In this document: piece by piece, positions 1,019 through 64,000 of the stretch | Position numbering within the stretch: the first letter of the stretch is position 1 | Layout: each line of letters starts with the position of its first letter | IMG/VR virus record: IMGVR_UViG_3300009285_005630 | Source: a virus | Length of the DNA stretch: 64,000 nt | Direction: 5' to 3' (one strand) | Translations under genes and position numbers: made by a program | Notes under the pieces: model-generated | Database searches by the model: none | What the model saw: the letters and a program-made list of their open reading frames with translations, nothing else | Told to the model about the DNA's origin: nothing

Positions 1019-1033
1019 TGTCAGAAAAGGATG
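1019..1033 (+). promoter_or_regulatory. Candidate phage late-promoter motif TGTCAGA-RNAG-N-A
   Basis: Same motif at 56570, 59385 and 62371, all ahead of late/virion genes; ATG 12 nt after the motif start here. Confidence 0.35.
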
Positions 1034-1288: not shown

Positions 1289-1671
1289 AGCCTATTGACC
1301 GTCTTGTCCTGGCATTGCAAAAAGCGATTACAGAACTGGAATATTGCCAGGAGAAAATGGGCAACGATAGAAAATCCACGCGCGCGGCCATTATCGCTGA
1401 GGCGGTATCGGCGGTGCGCGAGTGGCAGCGCAACCCTAAGCAGGAGGCTCTCATGAGCAAGTTTGACGAGGCCCTAAAACGTCTCAACGCCTTGACCGAA
1501 GCCACGGACCCCAACGATCAGAAATGCGCCACGTGCCGGTACTACCAACCGGGCACCAAGTCGTGCGGTGAAGAGTACCGTGTGGTCAAGCTCCACACGT
1601 ATTTCAACCTCGTGGACTGGACGCAGAAGCCTGGCGAACCCAACATCTGTCTCGTTTGGCAGGGCAAGTGA
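1285..1671 (+). CDS. Hypothetical protein with Cys-rich C-terminus
   Basis: ATG at 1285 overlaps the previous stop; helical N-terminus, CATC...C...C at the end. Confidence 0.5.
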   Translation: MKPIDRLVLALQKAITELEYCQEKMGNDRKSTRAAIIAEAVSAVREWQRNPKQEALMSKFDEALKRLNALTEATDPNDQKCATCRYYQPGTKSCGEEYRVVKLHTYFNLVDWTQKPGEPNICLVWQGK

Positions 1672-1672
1672 C

Positions 1673-2161
1673 ATGGAGGACCCGCGTCGGCCGGATGTTC
1701 CGGTCGGCTACGAGGGGTTGACCCGCGTGTGCAGTCAGCCCCCGGAGGACATGGAGCACAGGCGCAATTGGGAGGCGCATAACCTCGTTCGCGTCCCGTT
1801 CTTAGCTCCTATTCCCCTAGCGTGGGATCCCAAGACCAAGGCTACACAGGTGTGGGTGCATAAGTACATTCAAGACGTGGTAACGGATACCTTTATGGTT
1901 CTGTACACGAACGGACTGTGGAGTCTGTTGGAGGACTTCGGTGGAGCGTATATGTACCGCACCAAGCGGGGATACGCCAGTAAACTGTCGGTTCACAGTT
2001 TTGGGATGGCACTGGACTTCTGCTGCGTCTCAAACCCCCTGGGAAAGAAGCCCGAGATGCCGGATGCCTTGGTAACAGCGTTTACTGATCTGGGATGGGT
2101 GTGGGGGGGCGCATGGCGTCGCCCCGACGGGCAACATTTTCAATACGCGCGGCAAGTGTAG
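1673..2161 (+). CDS. Endolysin, M15-family (L-Ala-D-Glu/D,D-peptidase-like) zinc peptidase
   Basis: SVHSFGMALD and WGGAW..DGQHFQ motifs carry the His/Asp/His zinc ligands of M15 peptidases. Confidence 0.85.
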   Translation: MEDPRRPDVPVGYEGLTRVCSQPPEDMEHRRNWEAHNLVRVPFLAPIPLAWDPKTKATQVWVHKYIQDVVTDTFMVLYTNGLWSLLEDFGGAYMYRTKRGYASKLSVHSFGMALDFCCVSNPLGKKPEMPDALVTAFTDLGWVWGGAWRRPDGQHFQYARQV

Positions 2162-2173
2162 GAGGAGTTTGAG

Positions 2174-2632
2174 ATGAACGTCGCTCAGGTCGTTGATCGG
2201 TTGCTTACGGAGGAATCCGCCGCTGCGCGGTTGCCGGATGATCTTCGGACGAAGGCCCTGGCCATGGCGCGGGACGGGTGGAAGACGCTCAAGCAGATGT
2301 ACGCCTTGAAGCCAAAGGGCCAGGAAGTAACTCCTGAGATCGAGGCCCAAGCCAAGGAACTCGGCATGGGATTCATTGGTCGTCACGCGGCCACGATTCA
2401 CGCCTTGGTCAAGGCTCTTCCCAAGCCAGTGTCCTCCATCAAGTCCACCACCATTACCGTTGACGAGTTTGTCAGTTGGTACTTGCGGATGCTGGATCGC
2501 CCGGAGAAGATCACCAGTTGGGCATGGGATTTTGTCCCCAAGTATCAGCGGAGTGACCCTGGTGCGCCTATGTCCAGGCTATTCAATGACAACTATAGCC
2601 CCGTCCAATGGGACGCTTTCCTAGACCTGTAA
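2174..2632 (+). CDS. Tagged hypothetical protein (N-terminal VVDRLLTEE), putative internal head protein
   Basis: SD GGAGGAG; N-terminal tag shared with neighbouring genes. Confidence 0.6.
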   Translation: MNVAQVVDRLLTEESAAARLPDDLRTKALAMARDGWKTLKQMYALKPKGQEVTPEIEAQAKELGMGFIGRHAATIHALVKALPKPVSSIKSTTITVDEFVSWYLRMLDRPEKITSWAWDFVPKYQRSDPGAPMSRLFNDNYSPVQWDAFLDL

Positions 2633-2686
2633 GATGAAGACCATGGCCTTGAACCTGTTGGCCGAGAACTAACGACGAGGGACGGC

Positions 2687-3331
2687 ATGGCCTATCGCAA
2701 GTATGTCTTAGATACGAATGGTGGAAGTCTTCTTGGAAGTCCCGAGTGGAAGGAATTCCTGCGAGCACTCAATACGTTCGCGTGGGATGGATACATCAGC
2801 AGCCGCGAGGGTACGCTGGTTGTGTCCGATGAATCCGCCCCGAAGGTATTTGCAGCAGCAAAAAAACATAATCTTGCCCTCTCCAATAAGGGAGTATTTA
2901 AGCCGTTGGAGTCTGCCCGGAAACCGGCCTCGCTCGTTGACCAGCTTCTGAAAGAAGATAGCTCCTTCGGCGATGTCATTTCCAGCTACTCCCGCGCGCA
3001 GGCATTAGAAGATGGGGAACTGGTGGACGTGAGTAAGATCGCCAAGGAAGCCGGAATCAAGTTCCCAACGGCAGTCACGCGGAATCTATTCACCAAATGG
3101 ATTGAACCCAGCGCTGAGGATAAGAAGTACGGCCAAGACCTCCAAGGAAGACTGTGGGACGTGGTGTATATGTTTACCGTCTACGCCAAGCGCACCAGCG
3201 GGTCGCGCATGACCTATCCCGTGATCTTCGCCAAGGGGAAAAAGCACGTCACTGTCAAACTCTTGGCCATCATCGGTCCTGGGGACACTGACGCTCCAAC
3301 CGCGACGATTATGCTGCCGGAGGACGAGTGA
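2687..3331 (+). CDS. Two-module tagged protein, C-terminal module DUF6573-like
   Basis: Internal LES...LVDQLLKE linker, then YSRAQALEDGELVDVS...GRLWDV; true start may be 2634 across a 1-nt frameshift. Confidence 0.55.
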   Translation: MAYRKYVLDTNGGSLLGSPEWKEFLRALNTFAWDGYISSREGTLVVSDESAPKVFAAAKKHNLALSNKGVFKPLESARKPASLVDQLLKEDSSFGDVISSYSRAQALEDGELVDVSKIAKEAGIKFPTAVTRNLFTKWIEPSAEDKKYGQDLQGRLWDVVYMFTVYAKRTSGSRMTYPVIFAKGKKHVTVKLLAIIGPGDTDAPTATIMLPEDE

Positions 3332-3609
3332 CACATACTTTCCGTGCCCGCCTCGACGCACTTCTGGAGCAGGACAACGACCTCCAGAAGAAGCACGACC
3401 GCGCCGTTGACGACGCCAATAGGGTAGCTGGCGACGTGGCTAAAACCCTGTCTATGAACCTGTCGTCAGACCGCGCCGCGCTGGTGGGTCCTGTGGCCGA
3501 TATCATCTACAGGCTCATCGTCGGCGCGGGCACAGGCGGTTTGCGCACGGACGTGGTCACACAGATTGTAACGATGCTGGACGACGCGCATATTAGCGCC
3601 GCAAAGTAG
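3328..3609 (+). CDS. Tagged hypothetical protein (RLDALLEQ)
   Basis: GTG start overlapping the previous stop; tag variant at the N-terminus. Confidence 0.55.
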   Translation: MTHTFRARLDALLEQDNDLQKKHDRAVDDANRVAGDVAKTLSMNLSSDRAALVGPVADIIYRLIVGAGTGGLRTDVVTQIVTMLDDAHISAAK

Positions 3610-3618
3610 GAGGACATA

Positions 3619-3864
3619 ATGGTCAATATCGCCGAAGCCGTTGATAAGTTGCTTTCCGAAGAATCTGGACAAGAGTATAAGATTGCCGACGCAGCCGTCT
3701 CCGCGCTTTCTTCCAAGTTTTCCTCCTTCAAGGAAACGCCTCCAGTGGTTAAAGAGCGTGTTCTTAACATTGTCAAAGCCTTGATCATCATGACGGGAAG
3801 AAACACGTTGACCCCGGCTGGAACGGCAAAGATTCAAGCTCTAGTCAATTCGTTGGCTCAGTAG
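3619..3864 (+). CDS. Tagged hypothetical protein (AVDKLLSEE)
   Basis: SD AGGAGG; N-terminal tag. Confidence 0.6.
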   Translation: MVNIAEAVDKLLSEESGQEYKIADAAVSALSSKFSSFKETPPVVKERVLNIVKALIIMTGRNTLTPAGTAKIQALVNSLAQ

Positions 3865-3871
3865 GTTCTCA

Positions 3872-5245
3872 ATGGCCTCCAGTACGCCGAACCCGACCTC
3901 CAATAAGACCAGCCGAGCAGTGGTGTTTCCGGCCCTCCAACCTGGATCGGATCAACTTCGGACGTTCTCGGAGGCCATCCTTCTCCAGCAAATGCCCGTG
4001 CGCTGGTTCACCGTCGGCGGAAAAATGGCCGTCCTGGCGTTGGAACCGGAGCGCGTAACCGCCCTTGCGAACCAGCAGGGTGTAAAATTCAGCTTCTTAG
4101 ACCCTAACGAGCCCATTCCGCTTGATGTTTTAGGGATTGTCAAGGTGGAAAGTGTGAAAACGCCCTCAGAAATGCCCCAGGATCGTTCGGCGGGGCTTGT
4201 CGGGGGGATGACACTTAAGGACTGCCTTGATGAGCGCCTGACCGGCCTGGACGGAACGACAGCATATCTTTTGGAGGGTATAAAGAATGAAGTCTCCTAT
4301 CCTGCGGGCGATCTCCCAGATTGGGTGTTCCGAAAGCTCTATATCTCGGCACATTCGCATGGTCAAATGGGTCTTCCGATTGTACGCCTGACCCCGGAGA
4401 TTCGCGGGTACATGGAACTGAATTCGGAAGCAACGCTATTCGCTGACGACGGGCATAAAGTTCAAATATCTGAATTGCCTACTAAGAACCCCTTGGAATC
4501 TCATACAAAGGTTCGCGTGTTTAGCCTATCTGCCCTTGTGGACCGGTTACTCCCAGAAATGGCATCCATCGGCGTGCAGGCTGACCATAACAAGCGCATG
4601 CAGGCTTTTCTACGGTCCCATGGCTTCCCCAATGCGGTGCCGATGTACATTGACAAGGGAAGCATGCGGGGCACCTGGCGGATTTACAACAAGGTCCGTG
4701 GAAAGGGGTTGGAGGGGTACGAGAACTGGACGCTTGACGCCGCTGAAAAGCTCAACGCCCTTGGATTCTCCAGCTATGATGGAAAACCCCTTGGGCAACA
4801 CTCTGGGAACGGAGGGTACTTCCAGATATTTGCCCGCTATCGGCCCACGGCGGTTTCTCCCATGGAATCCCAGAAGGTGTCTTTGCCTCGTTTGGTAGAT
4901 CACCTTCTACTGGAAGGATTTTCTCGCTATTGGGAGAACCCTGACGGCTTCACAGATGAGCAGTGGACGGCATTCACGGCCAAGGCCAAGCAGATTATCC
5001 AAGCCGCCGCGCGGAAGAAGATTGTCCTTGCCGGTGGAAACGGAACTGGGAAACCTGTCGTAGACGACAAGGTTGTGATGTTCAATGGAGCCAACCCCGA
5101 TGGGTACGAGACGTGTACAATCCAGCGTGAAGGGGACAAGTTTGGGTTCTGCAAGACGGCGCAGAAACCCTATGACGTGGTGGTCAAAGCAATCTTAGAC
5201 GCGGCGGCGCAAACCAACCCGGATTTCACGGTCACCTCGGGCTAA
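3872..5245 (+). CDS. Multi-module tagged protein (putative polyprotein)
   Basis: Internal LES...LVDRLLPE (4493-4558) and MES...LVDHLLLE (4862-4915) linkers; last module has FNG...FCKTAQKPYD. Confidence 0.6.
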   Translation: MASSTPNPTSNKTSRAVVFPALQPGSDQLRTFSEAILLQQMPVRWFTVGGKMAVLALEPERVTALANQQGVKFSFLDPNEPIPLDVLGIVKVESVKTPSEMPQDRSAGLVGGMTLKDCLDERLTGLDGTTAYLLEGIKNEVSYPAGDLPDWVFRKLYISAHSHGQMGLPIVRLTPEIRGYMELNSEATLFADDGHKVQISELPTKNPLESHTKVRVFSLSALVDRLLPEMASIGVQADHNKRMQAFLRSHGFPNAVPMYIDKGSMRGTWRIYNKVRGKGLEGYENWTLDAAEKLNALGFSSYDGKPLGQHSGNGGYFQIFARYRPTAVSPMESQKVSLPRLVDHLLLEGFSRYWENPDGFTDEQWTAFTAKAKQIIQAAARKKIVLAGGNGTGKPVVDDKVVMFNGANPDGYETCTIQREGDKFGFCKTAQKPYDVVVKAILDAAAQTNPDFTVTSG

Positions 5246-5255
5246 GGAGAATGTC

Positions 5256-5564
5256 ATGGACATTCAGCGACTCACGGACCGATTGTTGACCGAAGGTTTC
5301 ATGAGCGGCAGCTCAGCGTCATTTGCCCAGAAGGCCAACAAGGATATCTCCGCCGTCCAAGACACTATCGAATACGCGCTCCAGAACTTATTGGATTTCC
5401 AGGCAAAGGCCAAAGCCGGGGATGTCAAGTTGAAGGACCCTGAAGCCGTTGCCAAGCTGGCGGTGGAGTTTCACACAATTAAGTCTGACCTGTTTAAGGT
5501 TCAAACAAAATTGAATGAACTGGAGAAAACCGCAATTGTTCGTTTCGTGAAGGGGACGGTGTGA
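5256..5564 (+). CDS. Tagged coiled-coil protein (LTDRLLTEG)
   Basis: SD AAGGAG; N-terminal tag; helical sequence. Confidence 0.6.
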   Translation: MDIQRLTDRLLTEGFMSGSSASFAQKANKDISAVQDTIEYALQNLLDFQAKAKAGDVKLKDPEAVAKLAVEFHTIKSDLFKVQTKLNELEKTAIVRFVKGTV

Positions 5565-6091
5565 CTCGCAGAAGTCTTGTTGACGCCATGCTTTTAGAAG
5601 CTGAGCCTGCCCAGCGTTTGGGCGGCGTGGATGTTTCATCTGTATGGGACTTTGGAGCCGTACGGCTAAAGAGACTTCACGGGAAACTCTATGGGAATAC
5701 CCTCGCGGACCAAGCCATCATGCGATCCCTTGGGTTTGGAGGTTCCATCACTGAGACTGAGTACGAGGCGATGTTGCGCAAGCTGGAAAGTCTTGGCCTT
5801 GGTATCGAAGTCCTGGGCCAAGAAGAATCCATTGCCCATGTTGTCAATACCCTTTTGTTGAAAGAGTACTTGGAGAAGGACTTGAAGTTCAAAGTCTTCA
5901 AGAACCCTGACGCTTTTGGTGCGCGAGAGTGGTCTTTTACGGTGTACTGGAAAGGCAAAGAGTTATTCACACGGGACGATTGCAGTTCCAAGGAGTCCGC
6001 TGAGAAAGAGGCGCACGAGGATATTCAACGCCTGGTCCGAGACACAAAATGGCTGGAAGATCTTGTGGCCGGGACGAAGGGCAAAGCGTGA
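5561..6091 (+). CDS. Two-module tagged protein (LVDAMLLE; VVNTLLLKE)
   Basis: N-terminal and internal tags. Confidence 0.55.
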   Translation: MTRRSLVDAMLLEAEPAQRLGGVDVSSVWDFGAVRLKRLHGKLYGNTLADQAIMRSLGFGGSITETEYEAMLRKLESLGLGIEVLGQEESIAHVVNTLLLKEYLEKDLKFKVFKNPDAFGAREWSFTVYWKGKELFTRDDCSSKESAEKEAHEDIQRLVRDTKWLEDLVAGTKGKA

Positions 6092-6870
6092 AGATACCTC
6101 CTGTTGGGACTAAGTACGTGCTGCACGCTCCAGGAGAACCCGTAGACGGTCAGATATTTATGGTAACCGAAGTTGAAACTCGACAGTATAATGCTGTGGC
6201 AATTCATTTGAAGCGCGCGCAGGATAACCGGATGTCTGAAATGACTCCGGCGGAACTGGAAAAGTCACTGCACGCTGGAAGATTACGCATTCAAGAAGGA
6301 GTTTCTATGCCTATTCGACCTCTGCTGGATAGACTGTTGAAGGAACTGGAGTATAAGGACGTGCGCTACGAGGCCATCCATCGCCTGGGTGAAGTGTCCC
6401 GACAAATCGAGAGGGCTTCCGACATCCTCACGCAGAAGATGCCGGAGATTGACGCCAGGACGTGGAAAATCGAGGCCTCTCTGGTCTCGGGATTCGCGGA
6501 TGAGTTGTCTGCTATCGTCAAACTCATGGGCGACGCGGCCGTGTTCACGGGCAAGCAGGGGGCAGTGGAATCAGTTTCTCCAAGCGCCGCAGTAGATGAT
6601 CTTCTGTCTGAGGACGCAATTACATCCGGCGTGCGCGTGAGCTACAACGCGGCGCTGGCCATCCAAGCCCGACAGATCCAAGCGGGGTACACCTACAAGG
6701 GCAAAGACATTTTCACGCCCGCCGTCGTCGCCAAGATCAAGGCCGCCACCAAGCCCTTGCCGAAGGGAATGGACCCGGATGAGCCGCTACCCGTGCGAGT
6801 CATCAATGAGCTGGTCCCGCGTGGTGGGGCGTTGGAAGACCTCGCGGGCGTGCCCCCGATGGGAAAGTAG
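6088..6870 (+). CDS. Three-module tagged protein (LLDRLLKE; AVDDLLSE)
   Basis: GTG at 6088 overlapping the previous stop; two internal tags. Confidence 0.55.
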   Translation: MKIPPVGTKYVLHAPGEPVDGQIFMVTEVETRQYNAVAIHLKRAQDNRMSEMTPAELEKSLHAGRLRIQEGVSMPIRPLLDRLLKELEYKDVRYEAIHRLGEVSRQIERASDILTQKMPEIDARTWKIEASLVSGFADELSAIVKLMGDAAVFTGKQGAVESVSPSAAVDDLLSEDAITSGVRVSYNAALAIQARQIQAGYTYKGKDIFTPAVVAKIKAATKPLPKGMDPDEPLPVRVINELVPRGGALEDLAGVPPMGK

Positions 6871-6879
6871 GAGCACAGC

Positions 6880-7419
6880 ATGGCAAATTACCTCATCATC
6901 GGTCATCACCCGGATGGTGGAGTCATTGGCGGGAAAATCTACGCGGCCGCCACCAGCCTTGCCGCCGTGGCTTTGGCGCAGGCTGACACAACGTTCTGGG
7001 CCAATTGGAGTGGCGTGGAACGGTTCTCCTTTGAGGAAATCCAGACGGCGGCGGTCCTGACGCCTGACCCCGTTGGCTTGAAGAATATCGCCGCTGCGGC
7101 GGTCAACCCAGCCACGGAAGACACGTTGGCGCTCCTCGCCACGGCTATGGCCCGGTCTTCCAATGCCTATTATGAGAACCAGGCGGGTACGGCGCTGACC
7201 AACGCCTTTGTCCAGCAGGCTTTCGGCTTCACAGCACGTAAGGTTGTGCTATACAACGACGACGGGGCCAACTGGATTGAATGGTCCTGGGATGGTCTGG
7301 CCGTCGCGGGTCGCCTGGAACTCGGGGATCCGCCGTTTGAGATGGACTGGATCAGCCGGACCAGCATCTACCTGCGTGGCCAAGCCGGTGGCGAAAGCTA
7401 CCGCGTGATCGTGCTGTAA
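6880..7419 (+). CDS. Putative virion structural/decoration protein, untagged
   Basis: Ala-rich N-terminal half, NPATEDTL, beta-rich C-terminal domain; SD AGGAG. Confidence 0.4.
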   Translation: MANYLIIGHHPDGGVIGGKIYAAATSLAAVALAQADTTFWANWSGVERFSFEEIQTAAVLTPDPVGLKNIAAAAVNPATEDTLALLATAMARSSNAYYENQAGTALTNAFVQQAFGFTARKVVLYNDDGANWIEWSWDGLAVAGRLELGDPPFEMDWISRTSIYLRGQAGGESYRVIVL

Positions 7420-7429
7420 GGAATCCACA

Positions 7430-7705
7430 ATGAAAAAGTTCCCTGTCCGTTCTCTCGTGGACGGCCTACTCAAAGAAAACCGCTTCCCCGGCAAAGGGCT
7501 GCCCACGGTAGAGTTCTATGTAGTTACCAAGACTCGTCCCGGTGCCTCGTTGAACGATATTTTGTTCAAGACGAACATCGAAGGCATCATTTATCAAATG
7601 GCAGGCGGACTGAAAATCGGAGAAATCGCCGGGCTGTACGGAGAGGCCAACGCCAAAGAGGCCAAGGCCCATGCCGAACGCATTCTGTCCGGTGAGGAAA
7701 AGTAG
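7430..7705 (+). CDS. Tagged hypothetical protein (LVDGLLKEN)
   Basis: SD AAGGA; N-terminal tag. Confidence 0.6.
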   Translation: MKKFPVRSLVDGLLKENRFPGKGLPTVEFYVVTKTRPGASLNDILFKTNIEGIIYQMAGGLKIGEIAGLYGEANAKEAKAHAERILSGEEK

Positions 7706-7712
7706 GCCCTAT

Positions 7713-8567
7713 ATGCCGTACGTTCCTGAGCAAGTAGATCAGTTCTTCTCCCTGTATGTTAAGAACTTGGAGAAGGCGATTCTCAAGTACCCCGCCGACT
7801 ATGGATTTGACCCTGAACAAGGTCCGGCCGGAGCACGAAAACAGGCAGAAGCCACTACCTCAAAAATTCGAGACGTGGTGGTAGTGAAAGGCTTAGGCCA
7901 TGTCAACATCAATAGCAAGGCCTTTGTGTGGACGACCAAGGAATTGAAAATCCCCAACACATATAAAGGCATTGAGGCGTTCTTGAACAAGGCCCCCGGT
8001 TCCAGCACGGAGTCAATTTTACGCATAGCCACTCTCACAGACGCTCTGCTGACCCGTGAGGGGCTATCCAAGGCCGGGATGATGCCGGATGCGCTCCAGA
8101 GCGCCTTGGCCGCTGTTCCGCCTACGGGAGGCACTATCCACGTTCGTGTCTCAACCGATCCCGTGTGGGAGTTCACGTACAAGGACCTGGCGCTGGCCAA
8201 AAAGGCGGCCGAGTCCATCTCCAAGGATCTTGGCGTCCACGTGGATGTTTCCGCACAGCGCAATACACCCCCAGATGCCGTGTACCCTGGCAAACGACAT
8301 TTGAAGCTGGAATCGGTCTCAGTCATCGTTGACGCCCTGCTGGAGAGTGAAGACGCTCCGGGCGCATGGGATAAGACGACGGCAGTAGCTAAGCTGCTGG
8401 CCCGCCGATTGGCCATGCGCGCGGATCGCATCGAGGGCTGGATGCGGCAGTACAACGTAGATCCAAGCAAGCTCTATAGCTTCCTAAAAGATGCTTCTCC
8501 AAGCAATGATGCAGCGTTGAATCAATTCACGGTGGCGGTTGTTAAGATGAAGCCGCTGACCTTCTAA
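7713..8567 (+). CDS. Three-module tagged protein (LTDALLTRE; IVDALLESE)
   Basis: ATG at 7713 after the previous stop; two internal ES...tag linkers. Confidence 0.55.
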   Translation: MPYVPEQVDQFFSLYVKNLEKAILKYPADYGFDPEQGPAGARKQAEATTSKIRDVVVVKGLGHVNINSKAFVWTTKELKIPNTYKGIEAFLNKAPGSSTESILRIATLTDALLTREGLSKAGMMPDALQSALAAVPPTGGTIHVRVSTDPVWEFTYKDLALAKKAAESISKDLGVHVDVSAQRNTPPDAVYPGKRHLKLESVSVIVDALLESEDAPGAWDKTTAVAKLLARRLAMRADRIEGWMRQYNVDPSKLYSFLKDASPSNDAALNQFTVAVVKMKPLTF

Positions 8568-8577
8568 GGAGAAACTC

Positions 8578-9117
8578 ATGGGCTATTCCACCACGGCTAT
8601 TGATCCCCAACGCGCCCTTGCCATCATTAAGGCACAGAAGATGCAACCGGTAGAATGGGCGCATAGCGTGTCCGGTTCCACACCGCCGCGCCTGGCCGCA
8701 ATCGCCAAGAATGTCCAGCATGCGGATCAGACTGACCACGAGCCCGCTAAGATCATTCTCTATCTGGGACCGGATGAGAATGAGTTCATTCAGTACGACG
8801 CCACAGCACAGGAGGAAAGTCTCATGGCCGATAGCCCCGTCCGCAAGATCCTGGAAGCCTACCACGCCAGCCAAGTTGCCAAGATACACACTGTCAAGGA
8901 ATCGGAGGCGTTTGACCACGCGGATGATCTGGACCGCATGGATCAGGTGTTTACCACTGTGCTGAAACGCATGGGGCTATCCTCGCCGGAAGTCCAATCC
9001 TTAGTCACCTCCGTTGGTGATATCGTGCGTGCCCGAATGGATGGTTCCTTGGACAAAATGGACCTCCTCCGCATCGAAAGGTACATTGCCAATCTGGTTG
9101 GAAAACTCTCCTCGTAA
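8578..9117 (+). CDS. Two-module hypothetical protein with divergent internal tag
   Basis: SD AAGGAG; internal EESLMADSPVRKILE. Confidence 0.55.
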   Translation: MGYSTTAIDPQRALAIIKAQKMQPVEWAHSVSGSTPPRLAAIAKNVQHADQTDHEPAKIILYLGPDENEFIQYDATAQEESLMADSPVRKILEAYHASQVAKIHTVKESEAFDHADDLDRMDQVFTTVLKRMGLSSPEVQSLVTSVGDIVRARMDGSLDKMDLLRIERYIANLVGKLSS

Positions 9118-9155: not shown

Positions 9156-9186
9156 GGGGGCTAAACCATCAGCCCCCACTTTGTAT
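9156..9186 (+). terminator. Probable intrinsic terminator ending the lysis/tagged-protein operon
   Basis: GGGGGCT-aaaccatc-AGCCCCC hairpin followed by ACTTTGTAT. Confidence 0.55.
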
Positions 9187-37428: not shown

Positions 37429-37459
37429 CGCGTAGTAAATTACTCTAATGGGGGTAGCC

Positions 37460-37873
37460 ATGACGCCTCTGATAGGACAGTTCTTGGGCATCGAAGCGGA
37501 CAAGCCGACGGCGACAGGCCGAGTGTATCCTAAGAGTGTTCTCGCTTCCCTGGTGTGTCAAGCTCGTCAGGATAAAACGGATATCCCAGGATTTTACGGT
37601 AACCTGACCGACGCTTGGCAACCGCCTTCCGTAGACACGTGCGCTTTCACGGCCAGGAACGTTCGGCTGGAGCGCGAACGGCTGGTGTGTGACGTGGCCG
37701 TGGTAGACACGCCTGCTGGTCGAAAACTCCGGAAGGACCTCGCCGCCAAGAAGAACGTCCCATTCACGCTGGCCGTCACGGCGTCATTACGCAGGGACGC
37801 GGAAGGCAGAGAGGTGATTGGTGATGATGTCAAGTTGTGCGGGGTATCCGCCGTGCTGGTCGATGGACAGTGA
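37460..37873 (+). CDS. Degenerate T4 gp21-like prohead protease paralogue
   Basis: ADKPTATGRVYPKSVL and DTPAGRKL match N.NGR.YP..L and L.TP.G..L; the GELDHP and SSRG equivalents are absent. Confidence 0.55.
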   Translation: MTPLIGQFLGIEADKPTATGRVYPKSVLASLVCQARQDKTDIPGFYGNLTDAWQPPSVDTCAFTARNVRLERERLVCDVAVVDTPAGRKLRKDLAAKKNVPFTLAVTASLRRDAEGREVIGDDVKLCGVSAVLVDGQ

Positions 37874-50902: not shown

Positions 50903-51904
50903 ATGATCCAGATACAAGGCCATCCTTTGGAGTCCCTCTATCGTGAAGTCCTGACCAAGTACGCCGACGTAGTGAGTCCGTTAAAGGAGAACCGGCGTCT
51001 GTTGGCGTCCGCGCTTCTGGACAACTGGGAATACGTTCAAACCGTCCCTATTCCCGAAGGCGTAGATGAGGTCAGAAGGAAGGAGGACCTTCAGCGCATG
51101 AGCGTGTGGATGAGAGACACTATTTTGGAATTTTGCCAGCGTACTATCCTTCCGAATATCATTTCCATTCAGCCCGCCATCCTGCGCCAAAACCATATTA
51201 AAAGCGACTTCCTATACCGTCGCGTGGAAATTAAAGAGGGCAGCGCGGATACCGTACCGGAAATAACTCTGCTGGACACACATCACACTCTCAGCCTGCT
51301 CCTTAGAAAGATGCGCATACGGCATCTCCTGACAAGAGCGCCTGGGGAAGTCGCGCAACAACTTATTGAAGATTTCGAGGCATACTTTTTCTATATTATG
51401 CGAGATAATGGTGTAGTAATAGAACTTCCTTTGTACGATAAAACCCCGCCGGTAGCTCAGGACTGGTTTGAGCATAATGTAAGAGCTTTTCCGGCTATGC
51501 TTTTTGCAGGGTGTTCCGAAGTACTCAAGAAAACACGAACCGTTTACCCAGATACGCTTCTCTGCGGGAAAAACGTAATTGCCTTCGTCGAGCATCTTCC
51601 AGATTTTCTGTTAGAAAAAACAGAACGTTCAACACGGGGAATACTTTCCTTGGGTAACAAGACTTTCACCGTCTACGCCTTGGATGGTGTTCATGATGAT
51701 TCATTTATCCTGCTTGCAGCCGAGAATAACGAACGGTTGCTGGCACATAATTTCATTTGGGCTCCTGGCTATCTCCTGGATATTTCAATGCCACACATAA
51801 ACACGGATTTCACCTGTTGCCAAGGAACCTTTTCCTTCTATGGTTGTTCGGCTCTGTGCAAGGCCTTCGCGTACGGAACCATCATAGCCGGAGTGCAAGC
51901 GTGA
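50903..51904 (+). CDS. T4 gp23/gp24-like (HK97-fold) capsid protein paralogue, divergent
   Basis: ALLDNW, ILPNIISIQP, PEITL...RKMR and FIWAPG align by eye with LLENQ, LIAN.VSVQP, PEI.L...TRKLK and YVYAPY of gp23-like MCPs. Confidence 0.55.
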   Translation: MIQIQGHPLESLYREVLTKYADVVSPLKENRRLLASALLDNWEYVQTVPIPEGVDEVRRKEDLQRMSVWMRDTILEFCQRTILPNIISIQPAILRQNHIKSDFLYRRVEIKEGSADTVPEITLLDTHHTLSLLLRKMRIRHLLTRAPGEVAQQLIEDFEAYFFYIMRDNGVVIELPLYDKTPPVAQDWFEHNVRAFPAMLFAGCSEVLKKTRTVYPDTLLCGKNVIAFVEHLPDFLLEKTERSTRGILSLGNKTFTVYALDGVHDDSFILLAAENNERLLAHNFIWAPGYLLDISMPHINTDFTCCQGTFSFYGCSALCKAFAYGTIIAGVQA

Positions 51905-53517
51905 ATATAGACTACTTAGGCTTCGGCATTATCCAGGCAGGTCGGAACGTCGGCCGGTCCGCGCGCATTCTCTCCATTCACGGGTGCGATATAAATTGTG
52001 TTCATCCGGACACATTAGTTACAATGAGTAATTTTACCCAAAAGAAAATCTCTATGCTAATTCCCGGGGATGAGATATTAGGAGTTAAGGCAAAGGAGGG
52101 TAGGAAGAAACGAAGTATGTTGTGTAGTCAATTAGTACAGCACGTTTGGGTTTCAGGTATAAAAGAGGGTTACAGTCTTGATTTTATTTCAGGTAATATT
52201 ATAGGAAGCGGTAAGCATAAAATTTATTCTACTCGCAGAGGGACCTACGCGGAGTTAAGAAACTGTAATGGAAGTACCGGTAAAATGTTCCCATCTTGTA
52301 ACTGTGAATTTAATAAAACATATGCATTAGGGTATATAAACGGGGCATGCTACGGAGATGGGTGGTTTAACACGAAACAATTTAGCATGGATACTGTCGA
52401 TAAGGAGTTTGCGGATAGATTTGTGGCTATGGCATGCCTACTTAATTTTAAGATAAGATATAGCGTTGCTCCGTATAACAAAGGATCAAAGTACACGGTT
52501 TTATACCGAATTCATACCAAGCAACGTAATTTTATATCTCTACTTGGAAATAAGAAGTTCGATAAAGGGGAACTTTTCAGGGGGTGGGTAGCGGGATTTT
52601 TTGATGCCGAGGGAAGCTGGACGAAGCACTGCGGAATCACGATGGTACAAACAAAAGATTTAAATCTTATGCAAGAAGTATCTTCAAGACTAAATAATCT
52701 CGGATACACAAATGCTCTATACACTCAAGACATTCCTAAGTTGAAGCCAAAAGTTTTATACCGCATTCAGATTAATAAAGTAAGAGACTCCCTTAAATTT
52801 TTTATGTGGGCTAATCCAGCTATTCAACGTAAATTTAGGCCTTCCGGATTAGAGGCTTTGGAACAGGTAGGGTTGCATGTTGGTGAACAGTGCTATACCG
52901 GAGAAATGTGGGATATAGAAACGAGCACAGGTAATTTTTTTGCTAACGGATTGCTGGTGCATAATTGTTCATACTGCGATAAAGTCCTGGGGGAAGACGG
53001 CAAGGATGTGACTGTTGACGAACTGTTCAAGGAGATCACAGCACTCCCATCGCCCAGCATGCTCCATATCAACGGCGGGGAGCCCTTGTTCCAGTCCGCT
53101 GAGTTATTGGAGATGCTTAGCCTTCTCGGCAGGCGTCCGATAGATATTGAAGTCCGCACGTCTGGAACGGTGGAAATCTTCGGACTGTTGCGCCATGATA
53201 ATGTCAGGGTCTTGATGGAGTACAAACTCCCCAGTTCCGACGTTGGGTACAGAATGCTGGAATCCAACGTCCGGGCCTTGCGCGGACGGGATGACATGCT
53301 ATTTTCCCCCCAGGATGACGGGGACGTGCTGAAAGCGCAGGAAATCATCCAAGCCGTGCGCTCCTATAAAACCACGGTGGCGTGCCCGGAATTCTGTTTT
53401 ATCTCCTCCAGAACCAGTTATACCTTTGATGAAATGATGGATCGCATGCGGCGCATCGGTCTGCTGTGGTCTCCGGGAATCCGTGTGCTCCGGGGCACGG
53501 ACAAGATCGTATCCTGA
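51901..53517 (+). CDS. QueE-like radical SAM protein interrupted by an intein
   Basis: Spliced sequence gives GCDINCSYCD (CxxxCxxC), then INGGEPLFQ and YKLPSS. Confidence 0.75.
   Translation: MNIDYLGFGIIQAGRNVGRSARILSIHGCDINCVHPDTLVTMSNFTQKKISMLIPGDEILGVKAKEGRKKRSMLCSQLVQHVWVSGIKEGYSLDFISGNIIGSGKHKIYSTRRGTYAELRNCNGSTGKMFPSCNCEFNKTYALGYINGACYGDGWFNTKQFSMDTVDKEFADRFVAMACLLNFKIRYSVAPYNKGSKYTVLYRIHTKQRNFISLLGNKKFDKGELFRGWVAGFFDAEGSWTKHCGITMVQTKDLNLMQEVSSRLNNLGYTNALYTQDIPKLKPKVLYRIQINKVRDSLKFFMWANPAIQRKFRPSGLEALEQVGLHVGEQCYTGEMWDIETSTGNFFANGLLVHNCSYCDKVLGEDGKDVTVDELFKEITALPSPSMLHINGGEPLFQSAELLEMLSLLGRRPIDIEVRTSGTVEIFGLLRHDNVRVLMEYKLPSSDVGYRMLESNVRALRGRDDMLFSPQDDGDVLKAQEIIQAVRSYKTTVACPEFCFISSRTSYTFDEMMDRMRRIGLLWSPGIRVLRGTDKIVS
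51997..52965 (+). mobile_element. Intein (323 aa) with LAGLIDADG homing endonuclease
   Basis: Starts CVHPDTLV, ends FFANGLLVHN followed by Cys; GYINGACYGDG and WVAGFFDAEG blocks; visibly AT-rich. Confidence 0.92.
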
Positions 53518-56641: not shown

Positions 56642-58207
56642 GTGGGGCAGTCATTGCTCAAGAGGATGCTGAGTATCGCGCATGTGACGCCGAGGCAATG
56701 GGCCAGGGCGGCGGATCCGGGTATAAGGGGGATGGACCAGACGTTCGCCCGGTTGGGCCAATTGGCCAACACGCAGGCGCTGGACCGCGTGGTATCCCTG
56801 GAGGCGTACCAGCGCCAGATGTTCCGGCGCTATCTGGACCGGAATTCCCGCTTCGTAGACTTCGATATCATGGATATGGACTGCGGCGAGATATCTGTCG
56901 CCTTGGATACCTATGCGGAGGAGGCCACACAACGGAACTTCGCCACCAAGCGCGTCACCTGGGCCGTCAGTAAAGACCCCACCATTCAGAAGGAAGCGGA
57001 CGCGATGATCCAAGCCACCGGTCTGGAGAACTTCGCGTTCGGTATCTGCCGCGCCTTGGCCAAGTATGGCGAAATCCTGGTCTACCTGCGTAAAAGCAAG
57101 GAGAAAGGTGTTTACCGGTTTATTCTCCTGCACCCGTCTCTAGCGGAGCCGGAACTGGAACAGGGCAAGCTCATTGGATGGCGGGCTCCGCAATTGGCTG
57201 AAATCTTTCCCGTGGGCGTCAACGGCTTGTACCCTGCATCCGATTTCGTTCACTTCCGCATCCCGGATTTCTCTGCATCCCAGATCGAAGGCAAGAGCAT
57301 GCTGGATCCCGCCATCAAGCCTTGGCGAATTCTTGACATGCTGGAAATCACCGTACAGATCTTCCGGTTGAATCGGTCCATCGACCGCAGGGTGTTCAAA
57401 GTGGACGTGGGGTCGGCGGCGACGCTCTACGATCAGATGCGTCTCGTCCAGGAGTACATGAAGTTCGTCAAGGGGCGGTCCGTCATTGACCCCGCCACGG
57501 GGGAATTCAAGATCGCCGTCGATCCCAACAACGTCCTGGAAGACATTTTCTGGCCCACGAAGGAGGGGAACAACTCCAGCGTGGAGTACATCAAGGCCGA
57601 GGGGAATGTTGGGGAAATCCTGGACTTGCAGTACTTCCGGAACAAGCTGCGCGTAGCCACCCGCCTTCCCAAGGGGTTCTTTGATGAGAACGACTCCTCT
57701 GGGTGGGACAAGGGGCGCTATCTCATGTTCCAGGACGTGCGATTTGCCAGGGTCATTGAGCGGTTGCAGTTGGCGTTCTGCGCAGGCGTTAAGCAAATGG
57801 TCTTACGACACGTGACCATGAAGGGGCTATTCCCGAACGGGATACCTAAGTTTGAGATCATGACGGAGGTGGCGTCCCAGGTCTACGTCAAGCAGGTGCT
57901 GGACAACCTTCGGGAATCTGCCGATGCCATTTCCGCCGTTTCGGACTTTGCTGACGTGGCGGGCTGGAACAAGGCGGAGTGGATTAAGTGGCTGACTTCC
58001 GCCTTCATGCAAATCCCATCGGACATTATGCAGAAGTTGGCGTTGGCTCCGGACCAGAACCTGGGGGTGGGCGTGGTACAGACGTTACTCTCCGGCATGG
58101 AGGGCATTGCCTCCGACAAGCAATTGGCGGAGTTGAGCCGTCGCCTTGAGAAAATCCGGGACCGGCTGGCGGGTAGTATCGCACAGGACTTAACGGAGGA
58201 AGCATAA
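56642..58207 (+). CDS. Portal protein, T4 gp20-like
   Basis: EISVALDTYAEEA, VHFR, GKSMLD, RRVFKVDVG, EDIFWP, D..YFRNKL, DVRFAR.IERLQ. Confidence 0.9.
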   Translation: MGQSLLKRMLSIAHVTPRQWARAADPGIRGMDQTFARLGQLANTQALDRVVSLEAYQRQMFRRYLDRNSRFVDFDIMDMDCGEISVALDTYAEEATQRNFATKRVTWAVSKDPTIQKEADAMIQATGLENFAFGICRALAKYGEILVYLRKSKEKGVYRFILLHPSLAEPELEQGKLIGWRAPQLAEIFPVGVNGLYPASDFVHFRIPDFSASQIEGKSMLDPAIKPWRILDMLEITVQIFRLNRSIDRRVFKVDVGSAATLYDQMRLVQEYMKFVKGRSVIDPATGEFKIAVDPNNVLEDIFWPTKEGNNSSVEYIKAEGNVGEILDLQYFRNKLRVATRLPKGFFDENDSSGWDKGRYLMFQDVRFARVIERLQLAFCAGVKQMVLRHVTMKGLFPNGIPKFEIMTEVASQVYVKQVLDNLRESADAISAVSDFADVAGWNKAEWIKWLTSAFMQIPSDIMQKLALAPDQNLGVGVVQTLLSGMEGIASDKQLAELSRRLEKIRDRLAGSIAQDLTEEA

Positions 58208-59384: not shown

Positions 59385-59399
59385 TGTCAGAATAGCATG
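59385..59399 (+). promoter_or_regulatory. Candidate late-promoter motif, leaderless
   Basis: TGTCAGA-ATAG-C-ATG with no SD. Confidence 0.35.
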
Positions 59400-59612
59400 C
59401 CAAGTCTTGTCGAAGAACTGTTGAAGGAAGAGACGCCCGTTCAGGAGTCCTCGGCTGTAGCCGCCTTACAGGCGATTGAGAAGGCCGCCGTAGCTATGAT
59501 TGCGGGTCGGCAACAGAAGTTTCATGCTCTCGGTAAGAGCATCGAGTTGACCGGAGATGCCTTGGATCTGGCGCAGATCCGGGACATGGCCCGCGCGGGG
59601 TTAAAGTCCTAA
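59397..59612 (+). CDS. Tagged small protein (LVEELLKEE)
   Basis: N-terminal tag variant, then VQES. Confidence 0.55.
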   Translation: MPSLVEELLKEETPVQESSAVAALQAIEKAAVAMIAGRQQKFHALGKSIELTGDALDLAQIRDMARAGLKS

Positions 59613-59722
59613 TGACTTCCCTGTTGGAGATGCTCTACTCCCGTTCCGTGGATTGGCGGGGGGATACCGCCCGTCGCGTTAAGGATGAACTGAAGGCCAT
59701 GCTGAGTTCCGGGGATATATGA
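59612..59722 (+). CDS. 36-aa peptide
   Basis: Start and stop overlap both neighbours. Confidence 0.35.
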   Translation: MTSLLEMLYSRSVDWRGDTARRVKDELKAMLSSGDI

Positions 59723-60294
59723 CACTTTCCGAGGAGTTGGTCATCCAAAGGAACCCAAGCGGACGCCGGAAGCGCCGGTTTGATCTGTTTGAGGACGGGT
59801 TTGTGTCCTCGGCCAGCATTGGAGAGACTCCCGCCTTCGTCACCGTGTACAATCCGGATTCCGTGGATGGTCGAATCCTGATTTCCGCCTTTGGAGCGCA
59901 CAACGACGGGGCATTCAAGGGCACTTGGGGCAAGAATAAGTACATTCTCCGCCGGAAAGGCAAGACTTTGGAGCTTTGGCCGGACTCGGATATGCCTAAG
60001 GCGACCATGCAGGAGGGCTCTGAGCGCCTCCAGGACCTCATTGCCCTGTATGAGGGTCTGGAAGCCACGGCGGAGGAGGAATTGCGCGCTATAGCTGCTC
60101 AGGGCGCTGACAGGGGTCGTTCTACGGCCCCCAGGATCAAGGAGTTCTTGGAATCCATCCACGGAGCACTATCCCAAATGCGGGACATGCTTGAGGCAGC
60201 ACACGCGATTCCATTTATGGAGGCGCAGTACTTGGAATTCGTCGGTCGCTTGGCGGACTTGGACCGAACACTGGAGGGGTTGCTAACGCGATGA
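59719..60294 (+). CDS. Hypothetical protein
   Basis: ATG overlapping the previous stop. Confidence 0.55.
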   Translation: MTLSEELVIQRNPSGRRKRRFDLFEDGFVSSASIGETPAFVTVYNPDSVDGRILISAFGAHNDGAFKGTWGKNKYILRRKGKTLELWPDSDMPKATMQEGSERLQDLIALYEGLEATAEEELRAIAAQGADRGRSTAPRIKEFLESIHGALSQMRDMLEAAHAIPFMEAQYLEFVGRLADLDRTLEGLLTR

Positions 60295-60635: not shown

Positions 60636-60907
60636 TGTTCAAGGCTCTTTGGAAGAGGCTATTTCATCGCTCCGACATCCAATCGGTGCTCGTGGAGGCC
60701 GAGGGAGTGAAAAACCGGGAGTATAAGGTTGGCGAAATTGCCGTGGGGGAGATATACTACCCCGTCCGGTTCCTCCGTCCCAATGGAGACGACTTGCTCA
60801 TGTTGTTCTTGCGTAGTGACCTGTGGAAGGCGCGTGCAAGGGCGTTGAAGCAGGTTGGGCAAGAAGGCGAAACAGCGATCAAGGACATTTTTGAGGATGT
60901 AGGGTGA
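60635..60907 (+). CDS. Hypothetical protein
   Basis: SD GGAGG before the ATG at 60635. Confidence 0.55.
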   Translation: MFKALWKRLFHRSDIQSVLVEAEGVKNREYKVGEIAVGEIYYPVRFLRPNGDDLLMLFLRSDLWKARARALKQVGQEGETAIKDIFEDVG

Positions 60908-61128
60908 TGGATGCATTCGTGCAGAAGTTTGCTTGCCCGTTTTACACGGAGGAATTATGCATCTTGGACCATGACGTGTGCCCATTCGCGCAGATCCCCG
61001 ATGGATTCCGGGATTGCGGGAAGTGGCTGCGCCTCGCGGGCGTTGTAAGCTCTGACGGGAGTAACCTGCGGGAGTTTGACGGAGTTTTGGAAAGCATTCC
61101 TGCGGTCGTGGACCGACTGCTTCAGTAA
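60904..61128 (+). CDS. Small Cys-containing protein
   Basis: CPF...C...CP...C. Confidence 0.45.
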   Translation: MMDAFVQKFACPFYTEELCILDHDVCPFAQIPDGFRDCGKWLRLAGVVSSDGSNLREFDGVLESIPAVVDRLLQ

Positions 61129-61604
61129 TGCTCGGGGGAATCGCTCGTCGGGCGGCTAATCGCATTCTGTTGGAATTGGGGAGATCGGATACATCCCCCC
61201 ATCGGGATCGTTTGGGTCCGTACGCATTTCAGTTGGAACTTCAAGCCTTGGGGAGAGATATTTTCCAAGAACCCAACATTTCGTGGCAGGATTGGTCGCC
61301 GATTCATACCTTAGGAAATCTCCTGATACGGAAATATTTCGCACAGTTCCGCCGCGTGGATCACTCCGAATCCGACGCGGCTGCGTCCAATCTGGTGACG
61401 TTGACGTACTTCATTCCGTACGATCACCGGTACTATATCGACGCGCGCGTGGTCATCATGCATGACTTCGATCCCGTGTACTCCGCCATCCTGATTGCCG
61501 ACGTGCGGCGGTACACAGAGCATCGTGAAGCCCTTGACAAACGGAATTTCACATGGTATTTAAAGGCGGCAATCCAGAAAAGGAGGGTTTATGAAACTGC
61601 GTAG
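61128..61604 (+). CDS. Hypothetical protein
   Basis: Overlapping start and stop. Confidence 0.55.
   Translation: MLGGIARRAANRILLELGRSDTSPHRDRLGPYAFQLELQALGRDIFQEPNISWQDWSPIHTLGNLLIRKYFAQFRRVDHSESDAAASNLVTLTYFIPYDHRYYIDARVVIMHDFDPVYSAILIADVRRYTEHREALDKRNFTWYLKAAIQKRRVYETA
61534..61562 (+). promoter_or_regulatory. Possible sigma70-type promoter (weak -10)
   Basis: TTGACAAAC, 17-nt spacer ending TGG, then TATTTA. Confidence 0.4.
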
Positions 61605-62993: not shown

Positions 62994-64000
62994 ATGAAAA
63001 ACGCGCTGCTACGCTTGATTCTTCTCATTGCCCTACCGTGCCTTGCGCAAATCCCTGTCGTGGATGAGACGGGAGCGAATCATCGGATGCATAAGCAGGG
63101 CAATCTTTATCAACTTCAACCTGATGCCTCTCTATCTACACGGGCGTCAATGACTTTGAAGAAAGCAACGGGGCAAGTACAGAATATTTTTGATATCCTG
63201 GATACCGATGCTGCCCCCATGTGTGAAGTGGATTCTACAGGGGATTGGGATTTTCATGGTCATGCTTTAACTAATGCTGATATTTCTGGGGTAGAAACTG
63301 ACACGCTGGCGACTGTGTTGGGACGCGGCCGGACTACAACGCTCGTTCCGAAATTCCATGCCGGCGTGGAAATCGGATACGACAATTACCCGGCGTCGTG
63401 CCTGTCTATCCCTGCCCCGTTGACGTTCATTTCTTCAGACGATAGTGGGGCGGCGTGCTATCGGACTACGTTTTCCGCTGGAAGCCAAACACAGAATATC
63501 GCCTATACGCTCCCACCGGATGACGGTGATGCTGGTGAATTCATGCAGACGAATGGAAGCGGGGCATTGTCCTGGCAGACTGCCGTGACCGCAGAGGTTG
63601 ATCCTAAAGTAGGAACATTAACAAATACGAAATGGTGTGTAACTGATGGTAGTGTAGTTAATTGTGCTACCGATGCTCCTGTGACTGCCGAGGCCGACCC
63701 CATCGCAACGCATAGGGATGTGGATGAGATGATCACAGGGACATGGATGTATCAGACCTCGCCTGAGCCGTCTGCATCGTACTACTCAGTAGTGCCGCCT
63801 GGCTTATGGCGTTTAACGCATAGCGGCCACACGCATGATATAGCGTGGCCTACGGCTACTGGAACCCTGGCCCTTATATCCGACATTCAAGCTGAGGTAG
63901 ATCCACGCCTGCCTATCCCTGTTGATCCAACTGATGATGGCAAGGTTCTAACGGCCGCACGCGGCGACGCGGAATGGTCGGCGCTCCCCGCTGAGGTAGA
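62994..64000 (+). CDS. Fibre/adhesin-like protein with signal peptide, runs off the window
   Basis: Open frame to the window end; MKNALLRLILLIALPCLAQ; YTLPPDDG..G..MQTNGSGALSW; AE(V/A)DP repeats. Confidence 0.65.
   Translation, partial: MKNALLRLILLIALPCLAQIPVVDETGANHRMHKQGNLYQLQPDASLSTRASMTLKKATGQVQNIFDILDTDAAPMCEVDSTGDWDFHGHALTNADISGVETDTLATVLGRGRTTTLVPKFHAGVEIGYDNYPASCLSIPAPLTFISSDDSGAACYRTTFSAGSQTQNIAYTLPPDDGDAGEFMQTNGSGALSWQTAVTAEVDPKVGTLTNTKWCVTDGSVVNCATDAPVTAEADPIATHRDVDEMITGTWMYQTSPEPSASYYSVVPPGLWRLTHSGHTHDIAWPTATGTLALISDIQAEVDPRLPIPVDPTDDGKVLTAARGDAEWSALPAEV

Follow-up and report, generated by a model that had tools for sequence, protein, structure and literature searches.

A recurrent V-D-x-L-L-x-E peptide in a gene array of an uncultured T4-like phage, a probable capsid-targeting and prohead-protease processing signal

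Introduction

The internal proteins of T-even phages are a diverse set with only a leader in common (PMC3012670, PMC12373910). In T4, the prohead protease gp21 acts within the assembled prohead and cuts after L/I-x-E, and the first 10 residues of the internal protein IPIII suffice for packaging (PMC9026906). Mutagenesis of this capsid-targeting sequence (CTS) revealed that targeting requires residues 4 and 7, while processing requires residues 8 and 10 (PMC9026906). The Ip1, Ip2 and Ip3 internal proteins are injected and inhibit different GmrSD type IV restriction enzymes (PMC12373910). Here, we describe a peptide tag with the consensus h-[VLT]-D-x-[LM]-L-x-E (h, hydrophobic residue; x, any residue) that is shared by otherwise unrelated proteins encoded between positions 2174 and 9117 of a stretch of viral DNA of 64,000 nucleotides (IMG/VR virus record IMGVR_UViG_3300009285_005630; hereafter, the window is this whole stretch). 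The tag probably combines a T4-style CTS with a prohead-protease propeptide, and it appears to be used in the same way inside multi-module proteins, where it is accompanied by an upstream E-S site. About half of our confidence in this reading extends to cutting after both Glu residues, and about half extends to delivery of the proteins to the host.

Related processing is known from other phages. The inner-body or ejection proteins of phiKZ, 201phi2-1 and SPN3US are cut by the gp21 homologues gp175 and gp245 (PMC9026906, PMC5694885, PMC7411985). The likeness to these giant phages lies in the many head-internal proteins that are cut after Glu, often at several sites, with removal of propeptides. 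However, the giant phages use the motif S/A/G-x-E and have no defined common targeting helix, whereas the phage described here has a genome of 97 kb and a tag with Leu at P3, the third residue before the cut. Polyvalent proteins of phages and conjugative elements combine unrelated effector-type domains, travel with the DNA and have been proposed to be cut (Iyer et al. 2017; PMC5512222). Five proteins of the array carry two to four modules, which lies within the range of two to fifteen domains of the polyvalent proteins, but their hallmark domains (MPTase, ArdC-N, ART-PolyVal, SNF2 and others) and self-processing peptidases were not found in the array with Pfam. ART-PolyVal was seen only in an unrelated leader array on another contig (L094, see below). 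Moreover, in our phage the prohead protease would cut in trans at a standard junction. Encapsulin cargo-loading peptides are short terminal peptides that send unrelated cargo inside an HK97-fold shell; they bind the shell protein directly, are not removed and have no homology to the tag. The locus is of a known kind, represented by the T4 CTS and internal proteins, gp21 processing, the ejection proteins of giant phages and the polyvalent proteins. The variant itself, with a different tag, about fourteen copies in one block, a full tag with paired Glu residues at each internal joint and a lineage remote from that of the T-even phages, was not found in the literature searched.

The tag and its distribution in the genome

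The eight-residue consensus occurs in about fourteen copies, one-residue variants included, in plus-strand genes between 2174 and 8567. The open reading frames (ORFs) of the array are as follows (aa, amino acids):

2174..2632, + strand: 152-aa protein with N-terminal VVDRLLTE at 2189-2212; no Pfam or PHROG match
2687..3331, + strand: 214-aa two-module protein with an N module, L-E-S at 2909-2914, LVDQLLKE at 2933-2956 and DUF6573 (PF20213, residues 95-214)
3328..3609, + strand: 93-aa protein with the N-terminal variant RLDALLEQ at 3349-3372
3619..3864, + strand: 81-aa protein with N-terminal AVDKLLSE at 3637-3660
3872..5245, + strand: 457-aa multi-module protein with two matched standalone families
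joint 1 of the 457-aa protein, + strand: L-E-S at 4496-4501 and LVDRLLPE at 4535-4558, then module 3
joint 2 of the 457-aa protein, + strand: M-E-S at 4865-4870 and LVDHLLLE at 4892-4915, then module 4 (4916-5242)
5256..5564, + strand: 102-aa protein with N-terminal LTDRLLTE at 5271-5294
5561..6091, + strand: 176-aa two-module protein with N-terminal LVDAMLLE at 5576-5599, then E-E-S at 5825-5830 and VVNTLLLKE at 5840-5866
6049..6870, + strand (start uncertain, 6049-6307): protein with Q-E-G at 6295-6300 and LLDRLLKE at 6322-6345, then V-E-S at 6568-6573 and AVDDLLSE at 6589-6612
6880..7419, + strand: 179-aa protein without tag; no family match
7430..7705, + strand: 91-aa protein with N-terminal LVDGLLKE at 7454-7477
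7671..8567, + strand: 298-aa three-module protein with T-E-S at 8010-8015 and LTDALLTRE at 8034-8060, then L-E-S at 8310-8315 and IVDALLESE at 8325-8351
8578..9117, + strand: 179-aa final gene of the array, no clear tag

A six-frame scan and a scan of the called genes revealed 10 copies of the strict pattern [VLT]-D-x-[LM]-L-x-E, all in plus-strand coding frames between 2189 and 7477. All of them (10/10) have L at P3 and E at P1, i.e. they end with L-x-E. When the residues of the array proteins were shuffled 2000 times, the mean was 0.022 copies and the maximum was 1. By exact-protein look-ups, the window belongs to contigs of 97.15-97.28 kb, which were assembled independently from many groundwater and other metagenomes; for scanning, the window was joined with two flanking loci to a composite of 97,142 bases. 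The other 28,328 residues encoded by this composite contain no copy of the strict motif (expected 0.28). Thus, the tag array that had been recognised in a first-pass annotation of the window is real. Shifted or looser copies are present at 3349 (RLDALLEQ), 5840 (VVNTLLLKE), 8034 (LTDALLTRE) and 8325 (IVDALLESE), of which the last three were found with a gapped pattern. Seven or eight copies are N-terminal and eight are internal. The copy at 6322 had been listed as internal and may be N-terminal, as an alternative gene call from 6307 gives MPIRPLLDRLLKE. The GTG start of ORF 5561 was chosen because of the tag and a 4-nt overlap with the preceding gene, and the public gene call differs in beginning 27 nt later. 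In copies of the phage from other samples, the array is identical.

A position-specific scoring matrix (PSSM) derived from the ten strict copies gives these copies scores of 26-33 bits. The next match in the genome reaches 15.9 bits: it is LVEELLKEE at 59406, located in the small head-module ORF 59397 downstream of the portal gene.

Over about fourteen copies, five tag positions hardly vary (-6, -5, which is Asp, -3, -2 and 0, counted from the final Glu), while the bodies of the proteins show no similarity, which argues for selection on the peptide. Indeed, the codons for Val, Asp and Leu vary freely from copy to copy, and all-against-all BLASTP of the array proteins aligned the tag stretch and nothing else, which confirms the synonymous variation and the dissimilar flanks reported earlier. 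A DNA or RNA signal and a recombination handle were also considered as candidates and ruled out by the codon differences between copies. It is likewise highly improbable that the tag has no present function and is left over from common descent or cassette recombination. A DNA handle would not be expected to differ at nearly every synonymous position, and a relic would not be expected to retain five almost invariant positions in front of bodies without similarity.

E-S sites and module boundaries

The internal tags are preceded by x-E-S sites (once Q-E-G), which are located 3-11 residues upstream. The positions 2906, 4493, 4862, 5822, 6295, 6565, 8007 and 8307 had been given for the internal copies themselves; the copies were confirmed and these positions turned out to be those of the x-E-S and Q-E-G sites. 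An ES dipeptide is found at most 13 residues upstream in 8/9 internal or C-terminal tags, compared with a background rate of 0.042 (binomial p ~9e-11 in a post hoc test), so that the association of x-E-S with internal copies holds. It depends on the position in the protein: an upstream E-S is missing at N-terminal tags, both sites are present at internal tags, and a C-terminal tag in a head gene (61090-61125) has the E-S and lacks the final Glu. This rule is expected if both Glu residues serve to detach the tag from a folded neighbour. The possibility that the internal tags mark separate gene starts was rejected: a Met is nearby only for M-E-S at 4862, there are no stops between the modules, and the array ORFs recur in >20 independent assemblies.

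The internal tags coincide with the boundaries of protein modules, three of which come from separate standalone families. A phmmer search with the 457-aa protein against 1.84 billion representative proteins gave 1834 matches, which fall into two separate standalone families covering residues ~237-325 (module 3) and 349-456 (module 4). Module 4 starts right after the Glu of LVDHLLLE, and its relatives are standalone proteins of ~110-200 residues. In 88 of the 150 matches listed, the module-4 domain begins at residue 2 of the homologue, so that the Met of the homologue aligns with the tag Glu. Module 3 begins a few residues past the Glu of LVDRLLPE and its family stops ~8 residues before the next E-S. 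For DUF6573, residue 1 of 120 standalone homologues aligns with positions 83-91 of the query, in which the tag Glu has position 90. AlphaFold2 (AF2) models built with family alignments are consistent with these boundaries. In the model of module 4 (predicted local distance difference test score, pLDDT, 90), the leader is disordered and the fold begins 2 residues past the Glu; in that of DUF6573 the fold is confident (pLDDT 88) and the tag forms a short low-confidence helix outside the fold. So the tag appears to sit between independently evolving modules, and its last residue would correspond to the native protein start. The polyprotein organisation suggested in the first-pass annotation fits the module boundaries and the positional rule, while the P3 residues of its x-E-S sites are not T4-like.

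The array proteins have no PHROG match, and DUF6573 is their only Pfam match above threshold; a match to SWI2_SNF2 lies below it (E 0.053). Foldseek searches against the PDB returned nothing for module 4 or DUF6573, the AlphaFold DB clusters contain only uncharacterised proteins, and the ESM Atlas gave no usable lead on the cargo. Among cultured phages, a single one has a module-4 relative, which is distant. The module-4 family has 1834 representative matches and yet no Pfam or PHROG model. In the AlphaFold DB, a fungal relative of the module-4 fold is fused to a heterokaryon-incompatibility (HET) domain.

The prohead protease and the head genes

The phage is an uncultured groundwater T4-like myovirus with a genome of 97.2 kb, which is known only from metagenome contigs. 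Its core head proteins are about 25% identical to those of T4. The prohead protease gene is located ~7.5 kb past the window end, adjoins the gp23-type capsid gene and encodes a protein of 510 aa with a Peptidase_S77 domain (PF03420). The protease is 27% identical to T4 gp21 and its His and Ser motifs are intact, as ELDHP and GVSSR align with ELNHP and GVSSR of T4. The C-terminal 300 residues are acidic, proline-rich, helical and scaffold-like. In this tail (L005:10001-11533), tag-like stretches (L-E-E-S-R-V-K-L-L-D-Q-E) and several E-S sites are present, which may be autoprocessing sites. An ESMFold co-fold of the protease-scaffold protein with the tagged ORF 3619 had a score of 0.01 and was counted neither for nor against binding. 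In the first-pass annotation, a "dead gp21 paralogue" (37448-37873) and a "gp23-like paralogue" (50903-51904) had been proposed; neither has a Pfam match at E 0.05, and the actual protease and capsid genes lie just beyond the window end.

Tag-like sequences outside the array are found in the head module, which follows the portal gene:

56642..58207, + strand: T4-type portal (gp20 family; PF07230 2e-41, phrog_213)
59397..59612, + strand: 71-aa head-module protein with N-terminal LVEELLKE at 59406-59429, then V-Q-E-S; top PSSM match outside the array
59719..60294, + strand: 191-aa head-module protein with the C-terminal end T-L-E-G-L-L-T-R
60904..61128, + strand: 74-aa head-module protein ending with L-E-S (61090-61095), IPAV and VDRLLQ-stop (61105-61125)
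61128..61604, + strand: 158-aa head-module protein with N-terminal AANRILLE at 61152-61175, a weak variant

ORF 59397 is located ~1.2 kb downstream of the portal gene, roughly at the place of T4 genes 67/68. Tag-like C-termini are present in only three genes of the whole genome (59719, 60904 and one gene of the neck region), all of which belong to the head or neck; thus, the tag-like ends outside the array concentrate in head and neck genes. A P-L-E-G sequence near the N-terminus of the capsid protein was considered as the maturation site and rejected, as its homologue LLEG in T4 gp23 and in the capsid proteins of the phage loci L016 and L028 is part of the propeptide. By alignment to T4, the capsid cut falls near residues 45-60, without an exact position.

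Leaders beside gp21-type proteases in other phages

Leaders are absent from most module-4 homologues. They are present in ~24 of the matches listed, ten of which end with [LM]-L-x-E or similar directly before the domain. For instance, a Peptidase_S77 gene is located two genes downstream of the gene for the leader-bearing protein P0096, and the neighbour of P0096 has the same leader. A scan of IMG/VR with the module-4 family alignment gave 80 loci, around which S77 proteases were sought within 10 kb. Three loci with an h-L-x-E leader (L016, L028 and L034; 3/3) have a T4-type portal, an S77 protease and a gp23-type capsid gene, and the module-4 homologue is located between the protease and the capsid gene. 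An S77 protease within 10 kb was found at 3/3 leader-bearing loci vs 1/77 other loci (hypergeometric p ~5e-5). The leader-bearing module-4 relative of L008 is likewise located in a head cluster with portal, S77 protease and gp23 genes.

Similar designs are seen in several phage contigs. Between the protease and the capsid gene of L016 (L016:4500-12200), at least 8 small ORFs start with M-I-K-L-K-x-L-L-x-E or a close variant. The modules of L016 are partly fused in L028 and L034, where polyproteins of 1315 and 1133 residues (L028:7856-11803, L034:8819-12220) contain 7-10 E-S-[VI]-N-E junctions. Both polyproteins belong to the head module of an AT-rich T4-like lineage, and one of their modules is the module-4 homologue. 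In L094 (L094:111-3828), eight consecutive ORFs have the leader ...[IL]-[DN]-x-Y-L-[TDN]-E, which resembles V-D-x-L-L-x-E; this array includes an ART-PolyVal ADP-ribosyltransferase, which recalls T4 Alt, and a TnsA-like nuclease gene comes next. Four consecutive ORFs of L010 have ...I-L-E-[GS]-K-x-V-R-x-x-x-L-x-E in common. The loci L016, L028, L034, L094 and L010 are unrelated to the window at the DNA level. Taken together, these sequences show that leader arrays and putative E-S...h-x-E junctions recur around gp21-type proteases.

These contexts bear on the possibility that the tag is an uncleaved docking helix whose partner is unrelated to the capsid, for example a host protein, a chaperone or a modifying enzyme of the phage. 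Short shared leaders can indeed serve other partners, and the window encodes a candidate enzyme:

51757-53517: radical-SAM (QueE-like) gene, matched to the QueE-like radical-SAM family; we take it to belong to the 7-deazaguanine pathway

However, this QueE-like gene is 43 kb away from the array, and the leader-bearing relatives adjoin S77 proteases and no other recurring enzyme. Moreover, the end of the tag coincides with domain boundaries, and the internal and C-terminal copies keep the E-S rule. We therefore regard an uncleaved docking helix as quite unlikely.

The recurrence also raises a wider possibility, to which we give somewhat less than an even chance. Phages with S77 proteases may share a grammar, consisting of an optional E-S, a short helix or spacer and h-x-E, that marks every protein or module to be loaded into the head and injected, including polyproteins of up to ~10 unrelated modules such as the 1315-aa protein of L028. 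If so, the set of injected proteins of any uncultured T4-like phage could be listed from the genome alone, and the families of module 3, module 4 and DUF6573 would be injected effectors, probably with anti-defence roles.

A second class of leaders or joints ends with [KRV]-[TSKR]-A directly before G-Y-T-H-Y-W (P0078, P0087, P0148, L014, L015, L039 and L089). No S77 protease was found near this class, at which another kind of protease may cut. The module-4 homologue at L093:74-466 translates only if TGA is read as Trp, which would place the leader design also in a recoded phage or host.

Comparison with T4 and the role of the conserved positions

As in the T4 CTS system, in which gp21 removes the leader from IPI, IPII, IPIII and Alt, a short leader with an L/I-x-E end is attached to otherwise unrelated proteins, and a gp21-family protease is encoded in the genome. 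Furthermore, the genes are separate from the head cluster and come directly behind the endolysin gene, which corresponds to the arrangement in T4, where gene e (lysozyme) is directly followed by ipIII and ipII. The T4 record gives MKTYQEFIAE↓A as the start of ipII and ipIII and FLTE↓A as the cut site of gp23; I-F-E-S-V-N is present in gp22. Residues 4, 7, 8 and 10 of MKTYQEFIAE correspond to the tag positions -6, -3, -2 and 0. However, h-V-D-x-L-L-x-E is not homologous to MKTYQEFIAE or the IPI leader, with which it shares only the final Glu and the spacing. The leader comprises 10 residues in T4 and 11-16 residues here, and our phage has about fourteen copies in one 7-kb block, of which eight are internal with an upstream E-S and one is C-terminal. 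The T4 scaffold proteins gp22, gp67 and gp68 resemble the multi-module proteins in that one polypeptide would receive multiple Glu-specific cuts inside the prohead. The difference is that the T4 scaffold is destroyed, whereas the pieces here, folded domains from independent families, are presumably kept. Since T4 gp22 contains I-F-E-S-V-N, E↓S is a plausible bond for the gp21 protease family.

The tag could also be only a spacer or inhibitory propeptide that is removable by the protease, the proteins being loaded by other means or acting late in the cytoplasm. The L-x-E end and the E-S site are indeed the best-supported parts of the tag, and the compact ES[VI]NE junctions in L028 and L034 act as linkers without a helix. 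However, positions -6, -5 and -3 are conserved although cleavage alone would need none of them, and they match the T4 targeting positions (PMC9026906). The C-terminal tag copies in head genes likewise speak against a spacer. Moreover, gp21 works inside the T4 prohead (PMC9026906), so that its substrates must already be inside. On balance, a spacer without targeting function is unlikely.

Proposed pathway

The capsid-targeting and processing code that the first-pass annotation had read into the array is supported in its core by the gp21-family protease, the L-x-E end, the domain boundaries, the contexts of the relatives, the ends of the head genes and the gene order. The part that departs from it is the P3 residue of the x-E-S sites, which is off the T4 rule. 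The rival explanations account less well for the conserved positions that are not needed for cleavage, for the coincidence with domain boundaries and for the head-module contexts.

We infer late expression, docking, packaging, both cuts, ejection or injection and the function of the cargo as follows. The array at 2174-9117 would be expressed late, downstream of the lysis genes. The tag would form a short amphipathic acidic helix, with hydrophobic residues at -6, -3 and -2 and Asp at -5, which docks on the scaffolding core of the prohead. Once the shell is closed, the S77 protease would cut after the Glu of L-x-E and thereby free the downstream module, whose N-terminus would be nearly native. 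The five multi-module proteins would also be cut after the Glu of x-E-S, which would release the module ahead of the tag and excise a linker of 12-20 residues. The freed modules would stay in the head, exit with the DNA at infection and probably act on host defence or takeover.

Several observations weigh against this pathway. First, the array is located outside the head-gene cluster, and the capsid protein, the portal and the protease carry no full tag. The array as first delimited holds for most of its genes, but two of them (6880-7419 and 8578-9117) have no tag. P3 of the x-E-S sites is P, Q, A, S or K, which does not agree with the T4 rule; the phiKZ-type motif S/A/G-x-E does not apply either, as P3 is Leu at every tag end and A or S in 2/9 E-S sites. 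The h-x-E motif is frequent throughout the proteome (1.4-1.9 per 100 residues) and by itself proves nothing. LL-x-E right before module 4 is also present in relatives of that family from other phages, so that part of the tag could be inherited with module 4 and not added to it. Finally, a close relative of the phage for a conservation test was not found among phage DNA records, in IMG/VR or by a helicase search. The individual searches gave no DNA match in 50,697 phage records, and neither the 457-aa protein nor the portal had relatives in IMG/VR; the portal is ~25% identical to the portals of known phages and the next-best helicase match is 35%.

If the tag works as in T4, a single 7-kb block names about fourteen candidate injected effectors without an experiment to select them, and the large uncharacterised families of three modules, which occur in many phages and bacteria, would gain a first functional context. 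The internal copies with paired Glu residues suggest that T4-like phages could use a single gene to deliver several effectors. The occurrence of this design in several unrelated metagenomic phages points to an old and widespread strategy among phages with gp21-type proteases. Moreover, the tag could serve as a handle to load foreign proteins into the capsids of phages other than coliphages.

Gene order and candidate transcription signals

All genes of the phage are on one strand. The order starts with the terminase, the T4-type portal, the head module of small ORFs, fibre-like proteins, the S77 protein and the gp23-type capsid protein. The capsid gene is followed by a gp13-like neck protein, sheath, baseplate, fibres, a small membrane protein, the M15 endolysin and the tagged array. 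After the array come a non-coding gap of 1.2 kb, HU, a helicase and the replication and DNA-modification genes. As the independent contigs start at different points, a circular or circularly permuted genome is probable. The features that flank the array are as follows:

1019..1029, + strand: TGTCAGA(RNAG), a candidate late-promoter motif that precedes the lysis genes and the tagged array
1568..2161, + strand: endolysin (Peptidase_M15_4; PHROG endolysin matches, PF13539), directly upstream of the array
9156..9177, + strand: G+C-rich hairpin with a weak T run from a scan for terminator-like structures, just past the array

The 11-mer TGTCAGA(RNAG) occurs 4 times in the window, always on the plus strand (expected 0.22). 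In the 97-kb genome, TGTCAGA is present 8 times on the plus strand and 0 times on the minus strand, and 7/8 sites lie ahead of late-gene starts. Sites are located at 1019, 56570 (before the portal gene), 59385 (before ORF 59397) and 62371 of the window and at 65901, 77519 and 90026 of the composite. TGTCAGA is thus a candidate late promoter or late-gene leader element. Between the array genes no sigma-70-like site was found, and the single plus-strand match (3764) lies inside ORF 3619. The late transcription unit may end at the hairpin at 9156-9177. N-termini that resemble signal peptides or lipoproteins, which is unusual for virion proteins, are present in two large fibre-like proteins (782 and 529-550 residues) and in several small late proteins (window 62994-64000, L005:2962-7497).

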